Shown: positions 9,559 to 30,676, counted from the first letter of the stretch. The stretch: 32,000 nucleotides of DNA from Candidatus Helarchaeota ASGARD archaeon Hel_GB_B (GCA_005191425.1 SUPR01000006.1:1-32000); one strand, 5' to 3'. Notes: a model not told the origin generated them from the sequence alone. Made by a program: numbers and translations.

Positions 9559-10911
9559 TTAGGTTAATTTTTCCAATGCATTTAACATTGGATCATTTAA
9601 TAGAGTTAGAGGGGGTGTATAGCAACGTTCGGTTTTAAGTAAAGACCCAATTGGGATTTTCTCGCGGATTACAATTGTTAATTCATTTATTCGTTCTTTT
9701 ACATCTTTTTCTCCAATAATTTGAGCGCCTATTAATTTGTTATTACGCGCAAGAAATTTAAATTTGAGGTTTTTCCAATCGGGAATATATTTTGATTGGG
9801 ATGCCCCTTCAGAAGTAGAAACTTTATATGAAATCCCAAAACTTTTAGCTGCATATTCTGTTAGTCCAACAGATCCGACTTCTAGCCCACCAAGATATGT
9901 AACAGATGGACTTATTGTACCTAAATATTCCGATTTTTTACCAATTATATTTTTTACAATTGTTTTACTTTGCATTATTGCAGTTGAAGCTAAAGCACTT
10001 CGCATCGGCTTTTCCGTAATCAAGTTTTTTGTTTCAATACAATCACCCAGTGCAAATACGTTTTCAATTGGCCGGTTATTTTTTAATATATGTAATCTTT
10101 CATCTACCTTAATACCACCAGTTTTTCCAATATCGATCCCAGTCTTTTTTATTATACTAACATTCGGTCTAATACCTACTGCAAGTAAGACTAAATCGGT
10201 AGGAATTTCTTTATCAGACTCTAATATTACAGATTTAACTTGATCGGTGCCATCAAATTCTTTGACTTTTACCCCTGTGATAATTTCAATTCCTTTATTT
10301 CTGAGCCATTCTTCAACTATAATCCCCATGTCTAGATCAAGCATAGCTGGTAATACGGATGGGGTCAGTTCAACTACTGTTGTTTTAATATTATTAGCAG
10401 CAAATGCAACAGCTGCTTCAAGCCCAATTAATCCCGCACCAACTATGACAGCTTTTTCACATTGTGTCATAGCTTCTTTAAGCATTACGCCATTCGAATA
10501 ATTCATTAGTGTATAGATTCTTTTAAGCCCGGTTCCTTTGATTTCTGGTGTGAATGGAACCCTTCCAGTAGCAATTACTAAGAAATCAAATTCTAACTGG
10601 TCGACTTTTCCTTCCTTACTAAACGTTTTGACTTGTTTGTTAGTATAGTCAATGTCTATAACTGTAGTATTAGTTAATATTTTAACATTTTTTTCATCAA
10701 AAAATTCAGGTCTGTGTAAAATTATATCTTCAAACTTTTCAACGACTCCTTCTAATACATATGGAATACCGCAAGTCGAATATGCATATTGTTTTTCTCG
10801 AGTAATACAAGTGATATCAAAATCATTGAATTTCATCAGCCCATAAATTACATTCATACCAGCTATACCACTACCAATAACTATGACCTTTTTTTTCTTC
10901 TCTTGTGACAT
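9559..10911 (-). CDS. FAD-dependent pyridine nucleotide-disulfide oxidoreductase (NADH oxidase / CoA-disulfide reductase family)
   Basis: VIGSGIAG, YSTCGIPY (redox Cys), LVIATG, IVGAGLIGLEAA, VFALGDC, and C-terminal YTPPL. Confidence 0.92.
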   Translation of the reverse strand: MSQEKKKKVIVIGSGIAGMNVIYGLMKFNDFDITCITREKQYAYSTCGIPYVLEGVVEKFEDIILHRPEFFDEKNVKILTNTTVIDIDYTNKQVKTFSKEGKVDQLEFDFLVIATGRVPFTPEIKGTGLKRIYTLMNYSNGVMLKEAMTQCEKAVIVGAGLIGLEAAVAFAANNIKTTVVELTPSVLPAMLDLDMGIIVEEWLRNKGIEIITGVKVKEFDGTDQVKSVILESDKEIPTDLVLLAVGIRPNVSIIKKTGIDIGKTGGIKVDERLHILKNNRPIENVFALGDCIETKNLITEKPMRSALASTAIMQSKTIVKNIIGKKSEYLGTISPSVTYLGGLEVGSVGLTEYAAKSFGISYKVSTSEGASQSKYIPDWKNLKFKFLARNNKLIGAQIIGEKDVKERINELTIVIREKIPIGSLLKTERCYTPPLTLLNDPMLNALEKLT

Positions 10912-11180
10912 TCAATTAACACCATTCATCATTTATTGAAAAAAAATTACTCAATTTAAAAGTCACAAAACATTATTTATCATTTTTTCGAACATTTTTT
11001 ACCATATTATTTAATTTATTAAAAAAGTTGATACTTTTTCTAAATTATTTTAAATATGGAAAATATTTACGAGATTATCACCTCGTGAACATAATAATTA
11101 TCATATAAAATTTTTCAGTACAAAGAAAACAAAGCATCTGTTAAATAAATTGAAAAAAATTGAATGAAAAACATAAAAAA

Positions 11181-11858
11181 TTATGAAGTTAAACTATTAT
11201 TTATCTTTATAATTAATTCTCGTGATAATTTATCCGCCAGATATAATGGTTCAGGAATTCTATGAACGGGCTTAATCAATTCAATTACAATATTTATGGC
11301 AGTTTCTAAATCAATTAAATTTCCGACCGAAATATAAATGGGTTTCCCAGTATTAGGTTTTAGTATTGCACCTAAAATTTTGCCATTAAACGTAATATAT
11401 GCCCAATTATTAGGACGGTCGGGGATATGTTCTGCTTTACCCACGAACTTTGATTTTCCGATCCCTATTGTTGATTTATGTATGATAACACCAAGATGTG
11501 CAGCACTACCAAATAATCTTGGATGAAGAATTCCAAATCCATCCACTAAAATAAGGTCTGGTTTCTTTTTCAACGATAATAAAACTTTTCTAAAATAAGG
11601 TACCTCTCTAAATCCTAAAAATCCAGATATATAGGGAAATTTAGCTTCATATTCAAAATATTTTTTCTCAATTATTTTTTCTCCAGAAATATCAGTCGAT
11701 ACTGCCATTACTACCGCAATGTTTGATTTTTTAGAATATGAAATATCTACACCAGTTATAATTTTTGGTGAAAAATCATTAGGAATTTCTTTAATTACCT
11801 TTTTTGATAGTAACTTTTGAATTTTGATTAATTTGTTTAAATTGATTTCTTTTTCCAA
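11181..11858 (-). CDS. nfi: endonuclease V
   Basis: GVDISY, FPYISGFLGFREVP, LVDGFGILHPRLFGSAAHLG, IGIGKS, KPIYISVGN, RIPEPLYLAD. TTG start. Confidence 0.95.
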   Translation of the reverse strand: MEKEINLNKLIKIQKLLSKKVIKEIPNDFSPKIITGVDISYSKKSNIAVVMAVSTDISGEKIIEKKYFEYEAKFPYISGFLGFREVPYFRKVLLSLKKKPDLILVDGFGILHPRLFGSAAHLGVIIHKSTIGIGKSKFVGKAEHIPDRPNNWAYITFNGKILGAILKPNTGKPIYISVGNLIDLETAINIVIELIKPVHRIPEPLYLADKLSRELIIKINNSLTS

Positions 11859-11968
11859 TTTTGGTCATAAAAAATAATATTTCAAAACATTTTAAACATT
11901 ATTGAAAACATCAATCCTAATTAAAAATAGAATAATAAAAATTAAAAATTGATTATAACTATGGTTTA

Positions 11969-12784
11969 CTACTTACCTTTGAATACAGCTTCACGTTTTT
12001 CTTTTAAAGCTTTGATGGATTCTGTAAAATCAAAAGTTGTGGCGGCTTTATTTAGGCCTTTATTTTCCATATCCAATGCATTAGAAACAAAATCAATTAG
12101 CGGTTTATGTAATGCCCGTTTCATTAATTTCAATGCAAGACTGGGCCCTTTAGGGGGTATTAATCGCATAGCCTGTTCACGTGCAAAAGGCATAAGTTCA
12201 TCTTTTGGTAGTACCTTATTTATTAGACCTAGTTCATAAGCTTGCTGGGCAGTGATTTTATCTCCAAAATAAATTAATTCTTTAGTCTTTTGAAAACCAA
12301 TATAATAAGGTAAAAGCCAAGTTGTAGCAAATTCAGGTAGAATTGCTCGCTTTACAAAATATAGTCCAATCCAAGCATCTTCAGCCATATAAATTAAATC
12401 ACAACAAGTTAATGGCATGGTAAATCCAGCGCCCACAGCAAGCCCATTAATTGCAGCGATAACTGGTTTTTCAAAATTCCAGAATTTTAAGCATAACTTT
12501 TTTTGGGCGATATCAGTTATTTCAATTTCTTCTTTAAGTTCAGGTGGTATTTGCTCAAACATTTTCATATTAAAATATCCACCTGATGAAAATGCGTCCC
12601 CAGCACCAGTAATAATCATTACTTTTGCACTCCTATCTTTTTTCATAATATCGACAGCATACCATAATTCCAGAAAAGTTACTGGGCTCATTGCATTTTT
12701 CCTTGAAGGAATATTTAAAGTTACTGTAACAATACCATTTTCATCTTTTTCATAAATTATATCTTTAAAATCTTCGACCTTCAT
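11969..12784 (-). CDS. enoyl-CoA hydratase/isomerase (crotonase) family protein
   Basis: TLNIPSRKNAM, ITGAGDAFSSGG, KPVIAAINGLAVGAG, ILPEF, ITAQQAYELGLINKV. The usual first catalytic Glu (GGGxE) is replaced (GAGFT). Confidence 0.92.
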   Translation of the reverse strand: MKVEDFKDIIYEKDENGIVTVTLNIPSRKNAMSPVTFLELWYAVDIMKKDRSAKVMIITGAGDAFSSGGYFNMKMFEQIPPELKEEIEITDIAQKKLCLKFWNFEKPVIAAINGLAVGAGFTMPLTCCDLIYMAEDAWIGLYFVKRAILPEFATTWLLPYYIGFQKTKELIYFGDKITAQQAYELGLINKVLPKDELMPFAREQAMRLIPPKGPSLALKLMKRALHKPLIDFVSNALDMENKGLNKAATTFDFTESIKALKEKREAVFKGK

Positions 12785-13055: not shown

Positions 13056-13544
13056 TTATCCTATTTTCTTATTACTTTTAAAAGAAGAAAACAACTTTTT
13101 AAAGAACCCTTTTTCTGTTGTACTAATTTTAGAAACATAATTTTTAATTTGCTCTCTTAGTAAGATTTCATAAGGAGCAAAAACATCTTGGTATGATCCT
13201 TCGTTATTTAGTTCATCCTTAAAAATCTCATAGAAAGTATCTAATGCCTCTTCAGCTTCTTTATGAAGATCAACTTTTTTAATATCGGACGACATTATCG
13301 CAATAATAATTAAATTGTGTTTAGTTGCAATATACATGTCTACATCTAATCCTTTGATCATGATCTCTTCAATTCTGCCAAGATTCTCCTTTCCAAAAAT
13401 ATGTAAAGCCGAAACAAAAGCTGGAATTAAAGTTGAATTAATACTCTCATCATTTAGCACTTGGACTAATGGAATGCCATTATCCTTGGCTATTATAATT
13501 CCTTTTATCATTTTATCTCTATCTTCTATATTATTCATCTTCAT
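13056..13544 (-). CDS. stand-alone longin-like domain protein (Asgard type)
   Basis: IKGIIIAKDNGIPLV...LIPAFVSALHIFGKE...IEEIMI...LIIIAIM...EEALDTFYEIF fits the beta-beta-alpha-beta-beta-beta-alpha longin/profilin-like pattern. Confidence 0.65.
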   Translation of the reverse strand: MKMNNIEDRDKMIKGIIIAKDNGIPLVQVLNDESINSTLIPAFVSALHIFGKENLGRIEEIMIKGLDVDMYIATKHNLIIIAIMSSDIKKVDLHKEAEEALDTFYEIFKDELNNEGSYQDVFAPYEILLREQIKNYVSKISTTEKGFFKKLFSSFKSNKKIG

Positions 13545-14601: not shown

Positions 14602-15522
14602 TTATATTTCAGGTGCCCATTCAATTTTCTCAAGGTATTCAATTAAATTTTTAATCATATTTTGATGAAATTCATCATCACTGTATGGTCCAAGGCTATC
14701 TAATAAATTTTTCAAGAATTCTTTGTTTTCTTCATCTCTTTGTTGCATTACAAGTTTATAGTCTAATAACAACGTAAGAGTTTCTTGTAATTCACTTATC
14801 ATTTTCTGAGATTTTTCCAGTTCTTGTTCTAATTTTTTAATTTTGGAATTGAGTTCATTTTCAATTCTTTGACGTTCTAACTTTTTTTCTAATGCTAACT
14901 TAATATGAAGCATTGAATCTTTAGATTTTAGTTTTTGAGTTAATTCGTTTATTGTTTCTTTAAGTAAATTAATCGTAACATCTCTATCATTAAGTTTTTC
15001 TTTTAATTTCTCATTCTCTTCTTTAATTTTATCTAATTCGGTTTTTGTCGATAATATTATCTGGAGTTCATCTTCATTTATTTTGATTTTATCATTGATT
15101 AGTATATCATACAATTTTGGAAGAGTCTCAATATACGACTTTCCAATTTTAGCTAAAACTTCTTTTTCAGTTGTGGTCCTGGCATCGAACCGTTCTAAAG
15201 GTAGTTCTCCTAGCACAATTTTTGCACCTAATGGTAATGTTTTTGTATAATTCTTTTTATCTTCATTTTTGTCCAGTAGTAAAGAAATTGCAAAATTTGG
15301 AGCGATATAATAATTAGCTGTTATTAAACCTGAAAAAAAACTAATTACATTCAGGTTTTTTAATTTTAATGTAATAACATTTGCATCTAATTGTCGCATT
15401 CGGTGTAAACTCCCAATTCTCATTATTTCATCTTCAGTGATTTTCAAATTTTCAGGATATTTATGAATTAAGAAAAAACCTTCTTTATTAGTCCAACCTA
15501 TTAAAATTATTCCTTTAGGCAT
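14602..15522 (-). CDS. longin/uDENN-like N-terminal domain plus a long coiled coil
   Basis: MPKGIILIGWTNKEGFFLIHKYPE (W-x4-G-x6-YP)...VISFFSG...AISLLLDKNED; residues ~150-255 are an E/K/L-rich heptad region. Confidence 0.6.
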   Translation of the reverse strand: MPKGIILIGWTNKEGFFLIHKYPENLKITEDEIMRIGSLHRMRQLDANVITLKLKNLNVISFFSGLITANYYIAPNFAISLLLDKNEDKKNYTKTLPLGAKIVLGELPLERFDARTTTEKEVLAKIGKSYIETLPKLYDILINDKIKINEDELQIILSTKTELDKIKEENEKLKEKLNDRDVTINLLKETINELTQKLKSKDSMLHIKLALEKKLERQRIENELNSKIKKLEQELEKSQKMISELQETLTLLLDYKLVMQQRDEENKEFLKNLLDSLGPYSDDEFHQNMIKNLIEYLEKIEWAPEI

Positions 15523-21313: not shown

Positions 21314-21572
21314 ATAATCATCTCTTTTTTTAAATCTTCTATTTTTATTAAGTTAAAATACTTTTTTAGCTTTAAAAACCTTGTGAATTTAGGTCATTTA
21401 TTACTTAATTGTTAATCAATTGGGTATTTAATTGAAAATATTTTCTAAAATTCTTTTATATTATTTTTCACACAATTTTTTATTGAATTAGTAAGAAAGA
21501 ATATGAAAAATAATTAGAAGCATAATTTTGATAATTTTAAACTTATGTACTAATGTTATCATAGTGAAAATA

Positions 21573-22364
21573 ATGAAATCTAATAAAATAATAACAGGAA
21601 TTCAAGGATTTGATGAGTTGATTGAAGGTGGGCTAAATGAATGCGATTCTATACTGTTAATTGGGGGGCCTGGGACAGGTAAAACAATATTTGGACTTCA
21701 ATATATAGTTAATGGAATAAAATATTATAATGAGGCTGGACTGATTGTGCTATTGAAAAATCAAATAGAAGAAATTCGTTTAAAATTAAATTATTTCGGT
21801 TTAAATTTAGATAAATTAATAAATCGAAATCAACTGAATATACTTGATGTATCACCAATTATTACATTGATGGAAAATGGAAATTATAAAATAAAAATAA
21901 AAAATGAGTCAGATACATTAATTGGTGATAAAGATTTTAATATACGAGAGATAATTTCAAGTATTCACCTTAAAAGGAGAAAAATTGAATTTAAAAGGGT
22001 TTTAATTGATTCTTTAATGCCATTATTACTAAAATATGATGATTCATTTCTTTTTATGACTGAATTTGAATTATTATTAAAATCTTTAAAAAAAGCCAAT
22101 ATGACTTCACTGATTTTAACTGAAAATAGTTTTAATAACGATAATTTAAAAATAGCAACACATTTGGTAGATGGAGTAATAAAACTGACATTATCAAGAT
22201 ATGGAAATACTAAAATTAGATATTTGGACATTATTAAAATGTCGAACTTGGGCCATATCTTAGCTACCAAATTATTTGATATTTCAGAACTAGGTATCAA
22301 AATTTTATCTGATAAAAAGATTTCACTAAATGAATCAATTGAAACACTTGATTTAAAGGTATAA
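21573..22364 (+). CDS. single-domain KaiC/RAD55-like RecA-fold ATPase, apparently degenerate; start revised from 21528 to ATG 21573
   Basis: TGIQGFDELIEGGL, GGPGTGKT (Walker A), RVLIDSL (Walker B), VDGVIKL, RYLDIIKM. Confidence 0.85.
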   Translation: MKSNKIITGIQGFDELIEGGLNECDSILLIGGPGTGKTIFGLQYIVNGIKYYNEAGLIVLLKNQIEEIRLKLNYFGLNLDKLINRNQLNILDVSPIITLMENGNYKIKIKNESDTLIGDKDFNIREIISSIHLKRRKIEFKRVLIDSLMPLLLKYDDSFLFMTEFELLLKSLKKANMTSLILTENSFNNDNLKIATHLVDGVIKLTLSRYGNTKIRYLDIIKMSNLGHILATKLFDISELGIKILSDKKISLNESIETLDLKV

Positions 22365-23377: not shown

Positions 23378-23911
23378 TTATTTTTGAATTTGTGAGATTG
23401 TCATTAATATTTTTTTTCCCAAATTTTTGAATGCTAAATCAATATTTTCCCCTGTTTTAGCTGAAGTTTCTAAAAATTCAATTCTAAGTTCTTGTGCTAA
23501 TTTTTCGCCTTCACTTTTAGTGATCATTCGTTGTTCTGTTAAATCAACTTTATTTCCAACTAATATCATGGGAATTTTATGTCCTACATTTACCATTAAA
23601 CGAGAGAACCACTCTTTTACAGCATCAAAAGTATTTCTACGTGTAATATCATAAACTATTAATGCAGCTTCTGCTTTACCATAAAAACGCTTTGCCATAT
23701 TTTGAAAAAGGTTTTGCCCACCAATATCCCAGATAACAAATGTTAATTCAGTGTCCAGGTCTTCGAATAAATATTCTTTTGCCATAATATTGACGCCCAT
23801 AGTACTTTTATAATCATGAATAAATTTGTGATGGACAAATGAATTGAGAACCGCAGTTTTTCCTACCATATATGACCCAATTATTATTACTTTTTTCTTA
23901 ATTTTAATCAT
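23378..23911 (-). CDS. Rab-like small GTPase without a C-terminal prenylation Cys
   Basis: GSYMVGKT, YKSTMGVN, WDIGGQ, FYGKAEAALIVYDIT, GNKVDL, ETSAKTG. Its start overlaps the upstream stop (ATGA, 23908-23911). Confidence 0.93.
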   Translation of the reverse strand: MIKIKKKVIIIGSYMVGKTAVLNSFVHHKFIHDYKSTMGVNIMAKEYLFEDLDTELTFVIWDIGGQNLFQNMAKRFYGKAEAALIVYDITRRNTFDAVKEWFSRLMVNVGHKIPMILVGNKVDLTEQRMITKSEGEKLAQELRIEFLETSAKTGENIDLAFKNLGKKILMTISQIQK

Positions 23912-24903
23912 TTAAATTCCTCCCTTCTAGAAATCTGGTTTATTGGCCTTAATAACGAATAATATTTGTAAATGGGTTTAATGCTAAGTGAATTTTTGAC
24001 AATATTTGCTTTGCAGTCCAAACATTGGTAGAATTCATTCAATTCTTTAAAATATTTCTTACATTTTAAACAATAATGATAATGTCCTAATCTTTGATAG
24101 TCTACTCCTTCAGTTTCTAATTTAAGATTACATTTCATACAAATCATATCATTTTTTATGAACTCATTTTCAAAATCAATATGTCCACATTTAAAGTGTT
24201 CAATAATATTACCTTCAATTATCGTAGATGAATTACAAATTGGACAAATTTTCGATGTTTTAAGATGACTTGATCCACATGAAGGACAAACAACTAAATT
24301 ATCGACCATATATTTTCCTACTATATTTTGTTTTTCCAATTCTTTTAACAAATCTTCGGCTTTAATAGAATTTCCAGCAATTTGTTCCAACTTAGGATAA
24401 TGGACACCATGTATATAATCATATTGGGGAGTAAAAATCGTAGATGGATTTTTTTCTAGAAATTTGACTACTTTGGAAATTTTATACGCTATAATGGGAC
24501 TTACAGGACAATTATTAATTTCGGATATTTTACTCGCTTTTTCAACTATTTCATTAAATAATTGTGGAATAATTTCGTGAGCTTTATCTAAATTTTGGAT
24601 AATTTTATAAAATTGCTCTTTTAAAATTGGTTTAAAAAATCTTGGTGTTTCATTTTCTTCAAGAATTAACATCAAAAGTAAATTATTTTCCCTGCCGCCA
24701 TAATAACATGCGATATGAAATTCATCTGTAAAAAGGGCAGAGAATCGTTCAGTAGTAATATCACCCATTGTCTGAGAGGTAAAAATAAATAATACTTTTT
24801 CTGTATTAAAAACTTTTTTAATCTCATCATCATCTGGATAAATTTCATCTAGTATTGCTCCTATACTATCGTCCCAATGAATTAAAGCTAGTCCGATTGG
24901 CAT
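23908..24903 (-). CDS. longin/uDENN-like N-terminal domain fused to a multi-zinc-ribbon TackOD1-like domain; start likely ATG 24903
   Basis: MPIGLALIHWDDSIGAILDEIYP at the N-terminus. C-terminal HYPKL...CPSC..CPIC..IEHFKCGH..CMKC..GVDY..CLKC..CLDC (11 Cys). Confidence 0.75.
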   Translation of the reverse strand: MPIGLALIHWDDSIGAILDEIYPDDDEIKKVFNTEKVLFIFTSQTMGDITTERFSALFTDEFHIACYYGGRENNLLLMLILEENETPRFFKPILKEQFYKIIQNLDKAHEIIPQLFNEIVEKASKISEINNCPVSPIIAYKISKVVKFLEKNPSTIFTPQYDYIHGVHYPKLEQIAGNSIKAEDLLKELEKQNIVGKYMVDNLVVCPSCGSSHLKTSKICPICNSSTIIEGNIIEHFKCGHIDFENEFIKNDMICMKCNLKLETEGVDYQRLGHYHYCLKCKKYFKELNEFYQCLDCKANIVKNSLSIKPIYKYYSLLRPINQISRREEFK

Positions 24904-25146
24904 TTTTATTTTCAAGAGTTTTTTTAAAATAAATCAATAAAGTTAATTAATATTTACTATAAATTTAGTTTTCAGATGTTATTCATTAATCAAATTAATT
25001 AATATTTTTTTTATCTAAATTTTTGTGAAAATTTGTTGAAAGTCCGTTTTAAGTTCATTATAAATTCTAAAATAAATCTTTAAATTCTATAACATTCAAC
25101 TTATTCTAAACTTAAATTGTCAAAAGTTTAGAAGGATGTTCAATCT

Positions 25147-29431: not shown

Positions 29432-30676
29432 TTAGGTTATTAAATTAGCAATCCAAGGGATTAAGATATCATCATTTTTTATATAGAATTTTTCTGTATT
29501 TTTATGTATACTTGCGAAGAAAACTAATTTATTGTTTAAAAAGCGTTTGATTATAGTAAGAATTTTTTGTCTATCCAAATTAATATCAATTGAATCAATA
29601 TTTTGAAATCTTCCATAATAAAAGATCTCGATATTTAAATTTGAGAGAAAATTTATTAAATAATTATAAAGGTCATTACATATTTCGTCATTTTCAGCCC
29701 AATATCCTAGTTTTAAACATGAACTGTCCATTAGTAATATATTATTTGTCCCAATTTTTTCAGCTTGCTCCCTTAATATATTATTTATAACAAATTTAAC
29801 ATCTTTATTAGCTATTTGTAAAATAGCGTGGGAAAAAAGATTGAAGATTGTCATGTCATCAAATATAGAGGTGATATAAAATTTAAAATTGAAATTCTCT
29901 TCTTTAATTAGAAATTTTATTTCATTTTTCATTTTTTCTAATTTTAAATTGATTTCACGATTGTCTTTAATATTAGGGTCCATTTTGTGGAAACAGATGA
30001 TAATATATGGTTCTTCACTCAAATAATTGTAAATTTTTAAAATGTTTTTTAGATATTCAAGGTTTTCTCCAAATCTATTAGATTGTACATCAATTACATA
30101 AATAACTACGTTAGTACCCACAAAAACCCGATGTGGCTGATTTAAATATTGGGTTCGATATTTTTTTTGCCCGCCCAAATCCCATAATTGAATATCACAG
30201 TAATTTATATCAAATTTTTCGCGTTCAATTCCTTTTGTTGGTTTTAATAAATTTAATGCTTTTAAAAATTCAATGTAATTTTTTTCGTATTTATTAAAGA
30301 ATCGATTTCTTATTGCTGTTTTTCCTGCATTATCAAGCCCAAATAAGTTTATTTTTTTAATATTTTTATTATGTTTATTATCTATTTGCGAAATTAGTTT
30401 AGCTATAATCACATATCTCTCAAATTCAAATCGGTCTATATTTAATTCATTTGAAATTCTATCAATATCATCAATTTCAAGTTTTAATAAATCTTTGATT
30501 TTAAAGATATGAAAGTTTTCTTGGAGAATTTGAGCGATATTTGGACTTATTTCTTTAATTTCAATAATAGATTTATTTAAAATATCTTCTTTTGACACTT
30601 TTTCTTGTAAAGAAATTTTGAAAAATGAATTTATTCGTTGAAATAAATCATCTGATTTTAATGTATTTAATACCAA
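29432..30676 (-). CDS. HhH-like domain + Rag/Gtr-like small GTPase + roadblock-like C-terminal domain
   Basis: IIEIKEISPNIAQILQENFHIFKIKDL; GLDNAGKT, KPTKG, WDLGGQ, CFHKMD, ITSIFD; C-terminal INNILREQAEKIGTNNILLMD. Confidence 0.8.
   Translation of the reverse strand: MVLNTLKSDDLFQRINSFFKISLQEKVSKEDILNKSIIEIKEISPNIAQILQENFHIFKIKDLLKLEIDDIDRISNELNIDRFEFERYVIIAKLISQIDNKHNKNIKKINLFGLDNAGKTAIRNRFFNKYEKNYIEFLKALNLLKPTKGIEREKFDINYCDIQLWDLGGQKKYRTQYLNQPHRVFVGTNVVIYVIDVQSNRFGENLEYLKNILKIYNYLSEEPYIIICFHKMDPNIKDNREINLKLEKMKNEIKFLIKEENFNFKFYITSIFDDMTIFNLFSHAILQIANKDVKFVINNILREQAEKIGTNNILLMDSSCLKLGYWAENDEICNDLYNYLINFLSNLNIEIFYYGRFQNIDSIDINLDRQKILTIIKRFLNNKLVFFASIHKNTEKFYIKNDDILIPWIANLIT

Follow-up and report, generated by a model that had tools for sequence, protein, structure and literature searches.

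A Longin-TackOD1 Protein Encoded in Overlap With a Rab-Like GTPase in a Helarchaeon and Its Possible Role in GTPase-Coupled Signalling

Introduction

In Candidatus Helarchaeota archaeon Hel_GB_B the protein P0001 joins an N-terminal longin domain to a C-terminal TackOD1 domain, and its gene overlaps that of a Rab-like small GTPase, P0002. The reading preferred here, with a probability of about 0.6, is that P0001 is a GTPase-coupled signalling protein, with the longin as receiver and TackOD1 as transducer, working with the co-operonic Rab-like GTPase. What is directly seen are the identities of the domains, the operon overlap, a recurrent neighbourhood of TackOD1 or longin genes with GTPase genes, and matched Rab and longin clades. 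In the mechanism proposed, the N-terminal longin would be a docking, receiver-type module that physically binds P0002, while TackOD1 (a winged helix followed by three zinc ribbons), which other archaea place behind REC, would serve as transducer or output. The action of TackOD1, which may be exerted on nucleic acid or on another macromolecular target, would then be coupled to the nucleotide state of the Rab. The coupling could run in either direction, with the Rab controlling P0001 (an effector model) or P0001 controlling the Rab (a GAP/GEF model).

Asgard genomes encode dozens of small GTPases and longin or roadblock proteins, almost none of which can be matched to a partner because the genes rarely lie in operons (PMC10933270). 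P0001 and P0002 are therefore a rare testable GTPase-partner pair, in which the longin is attached to a domain from archaeal two-component signalling. With such a pair one could learn if Asgard longins serve as GAPs, GEFs or effectors, which target TackOD1 binds, and if, in the archaeal relatives of eukaryotes, switching by GTPases fed gene regulation rather than membrane traffic.

Gene Organisation

The window, by which is meant the whole 32,000-nucleotide stretch analysed (GCA_005191425.1, SUPR01000006.1:1-32000; positions counted from its first letter), has a G+C content of 22-33% and belongs to an assembly of 3.5 Mb in 182 contigs that is 94% complete. The longin-TackOD1 gene lies at 23908..24903 on the minus strand, stop codon included. 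The open reading frame itself (23908..24915, minus strand) opens with TTG, with an in-frame ATG at 24903 giving a protein of 331 aa, and this ATG is the supported start because all full-length orthologues begin MP(K/Q)G. The closest relative of P0001 is a Helarchaeota MAG protein with 62% identity, and this orthologue, together with a TackOD1 match at E 2.5e-35 and 1912 relatives, indicates that P0001 is no chance reading frame.

The Rab-like GTPase P0002 (177 aa) follows at 23378..23911 on the same strand, the stop of P0001 (TGA, 23910-23908) and the start of P0002 (ATG, 23911-23909) sharing the sequence ATGA, just as the first-pass annotation had claimed. A Shine-Dalgarno-like GGGAGG (23919..23924, minus strand) sits within the 3′ end of the longin-TackOD1 gene, 7 nt before the Rab ATG. 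Overlap of stop and start together with such a site is the usual mark of an operon-internal, coupled start, and from the ATGA overlap and the GGGAGG we infer translational coupling from P0001 to P0002.

The window also holds a minus-strand ORF of 162 aa at 13056-13544 with a borderline match to the ARL2-binding BART domain (PF11527, E 1.2e-4, 22.6 bits against a cut-off of 23); this ORF shares the window with three small GTPase genes. A Gtr1/RagA-like GTPase of 414 aa (E 1.8e-27) is encoded at 29432-30676 (minus strand); its N-terminus is extended by about 100 aa, for which no family match was obtained.

The Longin Domain

The longin domain comprises aa 1-135 (24499..24903, minus strand), as delimited by the AF2 model, structure alignment and alignment A6. 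Modelled from a 70-row alignment, the N-terminal part reaches a pLDDT of 93.4 and shows the order beta-beta-alpha-beta-beta-beta-alpha-alpha typical of longins, without an N-terminal helix; its elements (strands 4-11 and 15-22, helix 26-44, strands 53-58, 63-68 and 75-81, helices 87-103 and 105-130) all have pLDDT above 90. Comparison of the model with 48,161 chains by VIA-align gave the top score to the Lokiarchaeal longin 8yqg_B (Z 12.0, 126 aligned residues, rmsd 2.9), followed by NPRL2 in GATOR1 (8fw5_B, Z 11.6), VAMP7 (11.4), FNIP2 and Sec22 (both 10.9), DENND1A (10.8), a chain of the C9orf72-SMCR8 complex (10.0) and the folliculin-complex chain 6nzd_H (9.9), with roadblock folds reaching Z 8.8 at most and over shorter ranges. 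In keeping with this, Foldseek assigned longin families a probability of 0.96-1.00 for the N-terminal part. The whole model had no PDB match at E<=0.001 by Foldseek. The longin-like N-terminus that had been proposed from sequence inspection thus stands at the level of the fold (pLDDT 93.4, Z 12.0 to 8yqg_B). At the level of sequence profiles, aa 1-140 had no match in Pfam or NCBIfam, and a profile of 37 longin relatives found nothing below E 0.03 among PDB sequences.

The longin of P0001 is one of a family found across the Asgard archaea (pattern MPxGI..WDDxxG(P/A)...YP...ASY..G...L.L...E). Some members stand alone (about 126-180 aa), while others are joined to TrmB/ArsR-type winged helices (360-375 aa), to TPR, to coiled coils or to TackOD1. 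P0001 carries W10-D11...G15-A16, of which D11 and G15 are at least 90% conserved (alignment A6). Its G15-A16 occupies the site of the GP motif before strand 2, where Gly conservation reaches at least 90% and many orthologues have Pro in second place. The GP-motif longins of Asgard archaea were discussed in 2025 (PMC12290439), with the corresponding positions in C9orf72 being W33-D34 and G38-P39, and the WD-x3-G(P/A) spacing of the P0001 family is equal to that in C9orf72. The beta4-beta5 loop has no conserved arginine finger, R71 being present only in P0001 and its closest orthologue, P0005, while the others have E, L, F, M or D; R52, at the "PRFS" position, is conserved only in this order.

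A second member of this longin family is encoded in the window at 14602-15522 (minus strand), a 306-aa protein whose first 100 or so residues match the WD-type family profile (E 9e-23) and are followed by a coiled-coil-like region, with no directly adjoining GTPase.

The TackOD1 Domain

TackOD1 (PF18551) matches aa 143-314 of P0001 at E 2.5e-35, with 122.2 bits against a Pfam gathering cut-off of 32 and coverage of profile positions 11-186 of 188. In the published description of TackOD1, five CXXC and one HXXC account for 11 conserved Cys (Galperin et al., 2018; PMC5847659). All of these are present in P0001 in the motifs CPSC (206-209), CPIC (220-223), HFKC (236-239), CMKC (255-258), CLKC (278-281) and CLDC (294-297), with GVDY at 266-269, giving a ligand set of 11 Cys and His236 (C206/209, C220/223, H236/C239, C255/258, C278/281, C294/297) that sits on invariant or at least 90%-conserved columns of a 52-sequence alignment (A4). 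The first-pass annotation had recognised the 11-Cys C-terminal domain as TackOD1-like by its Cys/His pattern, an identification that the Pfam match and the complete set of Cys and His ligands confirm.

The AF2 model of aa 133-331 (pLDDT 94.2) consists of a helical, winged-helix unit followed by three pairs of ribbon hairpins. The winged-helix-like part, defined by wHTH structure matches, spans aa 136-205 (24289..24498, minus strand) and resembles domains of the GntR, MarR, Z-alpha and AbfR2 types (Z 6-7.5 over about 62 residues, rmsd 2.0-2.7), values that are ordinary for so small a domain and middling on the aligner's scale. The triple zinc-ribbon module, defined by five CXXC and one HXXC with 12 ligands, spans aa 206-316 (23956..24288, minus strand), and because these ligands fall on ribbon hairpins in the model, P0001 TackOD1 is predicted to bind three zinc ions. 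Foldseek found no PDB match for the TackOD1 model alone at E<=0.001, and the zinc-ribbon module had no clear solved counterpart, with weak rows only to PolD DP2, RING and LIM.

A role in nucleic-acid binding is hinted at by the winged helix and by the nuclease-fold partner that TackOD1 has in relatives (see below), but binding of DNA or other nucleic acid by TackOD1 is only weakly supported. The mean charge of the winged-helix segment is acidic (-2.1) and that of the zinc module mildly basic (+2.9), and the acidic segment weakens the case for TackOD1 as a canonical basic DNA-reading winged helix.

The wider family places TackOD1 within longer chains. An exhaustive search of the representative library found 1912 relatives of P0001 at E<=1e-3, and it is on this search that the count rests, a word-index homologue search having recovered three proteins. 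TackOD1 was matched in 138/138 of the best relatives scanned (the best 138 of 1912), in which TackOD1 most commonly came first, with a tail of about 140 aa behind it. A profile built from 39 tails of this kind matched the restriction-endonuclease-like AF1548 (1y88) at E 4e-4, and Mrr_cat was matched in 10 members (best E 1.6e-5), suggesting by sequence comparison that the tails behind TackOD1 have an Mrr-like PD-(D/E)xK nuclease fold. Among the same best 138 of 1912 relatives, Mrr_cat (E<=1e-3) was found in 8, GGDEF in 7 and REC in 7, so that the earlier statement that TackOD1 is normally fused to REC does not hold for the relatives closest to P0001. REC-TackOD1 proteins do occur (P0015, P0022, P0061, P0037 and P0143, with P0037 and P0143 being of the form REC-X-TackOD1), and they bear out the position assigned to the longin, as an input module in the place of REC. 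The domain grammar is [REC / longin / nothing] - TackOD1 - [nothing / Mrr-like / GGDEF]. TackOD1 also stands upstream of the diguanylate-cyclase domain GGDEF in the 547-aa P0034 (X-TackOD1-GGDEF), and of Mrr-like plus rubrerythrin domains in the 600-aa P0121. Because GGDEF and Mrr-like domains can follow it, TackOD1 is not strictly a terminal output and is better termed a transducer. This placement, the acidic winged helix and the only mildly basic zinc module leave it uncertain whether TackOD1 serves as an output.

The Rab-Like GTPase and Its Co-Divergence With the Longin

P0002 matches Pfam Ras at E 2e-47 with its motifs intact, namely G1 GSYMVGKT, T37, G3 DIGGQ with the catalytic Gln, G4 NKVD and G5 SAK. 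All family-named PDB relatives among the matches listed are Rabs, the best being the Thorarchaeota Rab 7ezb (E 5e-35). The C-terminus (...MTISQIQK) has no Cys and shows no prenylation motif, for which reason P0002 is called Rab-like. At the position of Ras Gly12, P0002 has Tyr. Across its clade the P-loop varies at this position, with GSYMVGKT, GSYAVGKT, GSFAVGKT, GSNAVGKT, GSDAVGKT and GSSAVGKT all being found. In Ras a substitution such as the Tyr of P0002 hinders arginine-finger GAPs, and the residue in P0002 may limit which kind of GAP can act on it. Full-length P0001 modelled together with P0002, GTP and Mg scored 0.01 against a mark of 0.32; run without controls, this prediction weighs neither for nor against binding.

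In a tree of 36 Rab-like domains (a truncated Rab of genome G106 being omitted), P0002, the Rabs that follow longin-TackOD1 genes in genomes G123 and G128 and three Rabs that follow stand-alone longins form one clade (support 99/98), and all 21 remaining Rab-like paralogues of the window's genome fall outside it. The longin tree contains a mirror clade made up of exactly the partners of those Rabs (SH-aLRT 98). Within this order Rab and longin thus appear to diverge as a pair, with or without TackOD1, which is supportive rather than proof given that the pairs are few and related. This co-divergence would take the Rab link beyond mere adjacency, and its independence of TackOD1 suggests that it is the longin that faces the Rab.

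The Rab tree does not support one ancient Rab-TackOD1 pair common to all Asgard classes, the TackOD1-adjacent Rabs of other classes falling outside the focal clade. Because those of different classes form no single clade, the pairing of Rab and TackOD1 may be recurrent rather than ancient.

Gene Neighbourhood in Asgard Genomes

Some match to P0001 was found in 287/400 Asgard genomes. In this order (the window, G123 and G128) longin-TackOD1 is followed by a Rab at 3/3 assessable loci, and in family f19 the Rab precedes longin-TackOD1 at 3/5. In family f21 a Rab lies about 1.8 kb upstream and is not a direct neighbour, while family f31 has no GTPase within 3 kb at any of its loci (0/11). A Rab followed by a non-longin TackOD1 gene is found at 4/4 loci of family f27 and at one locus each in G004 and G001, and at Odin-type loci the TackOD1 protein has no longin sheet yet still adjoins a Rab. 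The reverse situation, a stand-alone longin of the focal clade followed by a Rab, occurs at one locus each in G123, G125 and G127. Adjacency to a Rab, which the first-pass annotation had marked out, along with the longin-TackOD1 architecture, for a search of Asgard genomes, recurs in several families but is patchy, as family f31 makes plain.

The window's genome has nine longin-family members and 46 GTPase-like ORFs, and 3/9 of the longin genes adjoin a GTPase gene where chance adjacency is about 2.6% per gene (P ~1.5e-3, a rough binomial). For a cultured Lokiarchaeon, GTPase genes were reported to lie generally outside operons with longins (Tran et al.; PMC10933270), so that rules of neighbourhood are weak in this phylum.

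Several further arrangements were seen. On contig C163 of the window's own genome (G000, locus L100) a 185-aa Rab-like GTPase (10817-11374; Pfam Ras E 6e-51) is followed after 3 nt by a gene (11378-12304) for a 308-aa protein that begins with a domain of the same longin family, making a second pair in this genome. In another MAG (locus L057) the longin-TackOD1 orthologue P0009 (1405-2406) is followed 5 nt later by a stand-alone REC gene (2412-2795), with no Rab there and an Arf-like GTPase gene divergent and upstream of P0009. Longin-plus-TrmB/ArsR winged-helix proteins of 360-375 aa, members of this longin family too, are each directly followed at loci L044, L048 and L054 by a GTPase with an N-terminal domain of about 120 aa, a second recurrent arrangement of longin, DNA-binding-like domain and GTPase.

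The Longin-Arf Neighbour

Convergent with the P0001-P0002 pair is the gene for P0003 (22376..23350, plus strand), a fusion of a longin with an Arf-like GTPase that is the third conserved member of the gene set in this order, its orthologues sharing the loci in G123, G128 and G125. The set brings together a WD-type longin (TackOD1 being attached or not), the Rab-like GTPase and an Arf-like GTPase whose fused longin has a putative arginine finger. The arginine motif WARG in the beta4-beta5 loop of the longin is kept in 4/4 longin-Arf orthologues of this order. By motifs and synteny, a WD-type longin without the arginine beside an arginine-bearing longin would recall the two halves of C9orf72-SMCR8. 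That the three-gene set could be a prokaryotic forerunner of the eukaryotic heterodimeric longin GAPs (C9orf72-SMCR8/FLCN-FNIP type), its two longins supplied by neighbouring genes and TackOD1 linking the complex to an output of the two-component style, on nucleic acid or by second messenger, is a speculative and rather improbable proposal. A KaiC-like ATPase gene (PF06745, E 5e-47; 21528-22364, plus strand) stops 11 nt upstream of the same-strand longin-Arf gene.

Alternative Explanations

The arginine-bearing neighbour raises the main alternative, though an unlikely one, in which the C9orf72-type longin of P0001 and the SMCR8/FLCN-type longin of P0003 pair as a heterodimer whose catalytic pocket turns off either the Rab or the Arf of the fusion, with TackOD1 acting as a sensor or anchor that regulates the GAP and not as an output. 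The motif spacing shared with C9orf72 (PMC12290439) with its conserved D11 and G15, the confinement of R71 to P0001 and P0005, the WARG of the longin-Arf orthologues, the co-occurrence of the three genes in the window, G123, G128 and G125, and a fold likeness to GAP longins of Z 10-11.6 would all fit such a pocket. The motif evidence is one of resemblance, however, and the structural scores to GAP, GEF and SNARE longins lie within about 1-2 Z units of one another, while the Odin-type TackOD1 protein adjoins a Rab even though it has no longin sheet. The Tyr of the Rab at the Ras-Gly12 position would also speak against an arginine-finger GAP, if the hindrance seen in Ras carries over to P0002.

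P0001 could instead be an independent one-component regulator, with the longin serving for dimerisation or sensing a small ligand, TackOD1 binding DNA, and the Rab merely co-expressed without contact. Fusion of the same longin family to TrmB/ArsR-type winged helices, TPR and coiled coils, the many family members that have no GTPase neighbour, and a TackOD1 with a winged helix and often a nuclease-fold domain joined to it are consistent with such a regulator. It is nonetheless doubtful, since the Rab and longin clades mirror each other, the stop of P0001 overlaps the start of P0002, GTPase neighbours are enriched (3/9 against about 2.6% per gene) and the winged helix is acidic. Very improbable is a role of the P0001-Rab pair as an adaptor positioning a pilus or other surface machine. 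MglA-type GTPases steer pili in bacteria, and TackOD1 (arCOG06883) is present in thaumarchaeal type IV pilus loci (PMC4858521, PMC5847659), but P0002 is Rab-like and not MglA-like, and none of the ORFs annotated in the window is a pilus gene, the neighbours being adenylate kinase, a KaiC-like ATPase, AFOR and DUF39.

Comparison With Known Systems

Both domains of P0001 are known, as is this kind of fusion, and the TackOD1 family has already been noted in Odinarchaeota (PMC5847659). Asgard "NPRL2-like longin" proteins fused to two-component-related domains were reported by Liu et al. (bioRxiv 10.1101/2020.10.19.343400), and the likeness lies in the joining of an NPRL2/FLCN-class longin to a prokaryotic signalling domain, with the text of that work naming neither TackOD1 nor a paired Rab; the matched Rab and longin clades are, to that extent, particular to the present analysis. 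No description of longin-TackOD1 or of its pairing with a Rab was found in the literature searched, which took in the text of Liu et al. What is added here are the matched Rab and longin clades, the three-gene set, the TackOD1 grammar including GGDEF, and the argument from charge against simple DNA binding.

The nearest counterparts of P0001 on the TackOD1 side are the REC-TackOD1 and stand-alone TackOD1 proteins of Thaumarchaeota/TACK (PF18551, arCOG06883), with which it shares the domain of about 180 aa, its five CXXC and HXXC and a GVDY-type motif and, in the REC-TackOD1 form, the placement of TackOD1 behind an N-terminal alpha/beta receiver-type domain. P0001 differs from REC-TackOD1 in that the receiver is a longin and not REC, in having no Mrr-like tail, and in lying in an operon with a Rab-like GTPase rather than with histidine-kinase or pilus genes.

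Dimers of longin and roadblock proteins serve as generic platforms for binding small GTPases (PMC10933270, PMC12290439), which favours the preferred reading. P0001 has the longin fold (Z 10-11.6) in common with C9orf72-SMCR8, FLCN-FNIP2, NPRL2-NPRL3 (GATOR1) and the GP-motif Asgard longins (PMC12290439). The likeness to the eukaryotic longin GAP complexes extends to the C9orf72-spaced WD...G(P/A) motif and the arginine-bearing longin encoded next door, whereas the P0001 family lacks both a conserved arginine finger and a DENN domain, and its putative client is Rab-like rather than Rag or Arf. The bacterial MglA-MglB system likewise has a prokaryotic operon in which a GTPase of the Ras superfamily is paired with a roadblock/longin-superfold protein; P0001, in contrast to MglB, is a longin and not a roadblock protein (roadblock Z 8.8 or less), its GTPase is Rab-like, and the partner of that GTPase carries an additional TackOD1 domain.
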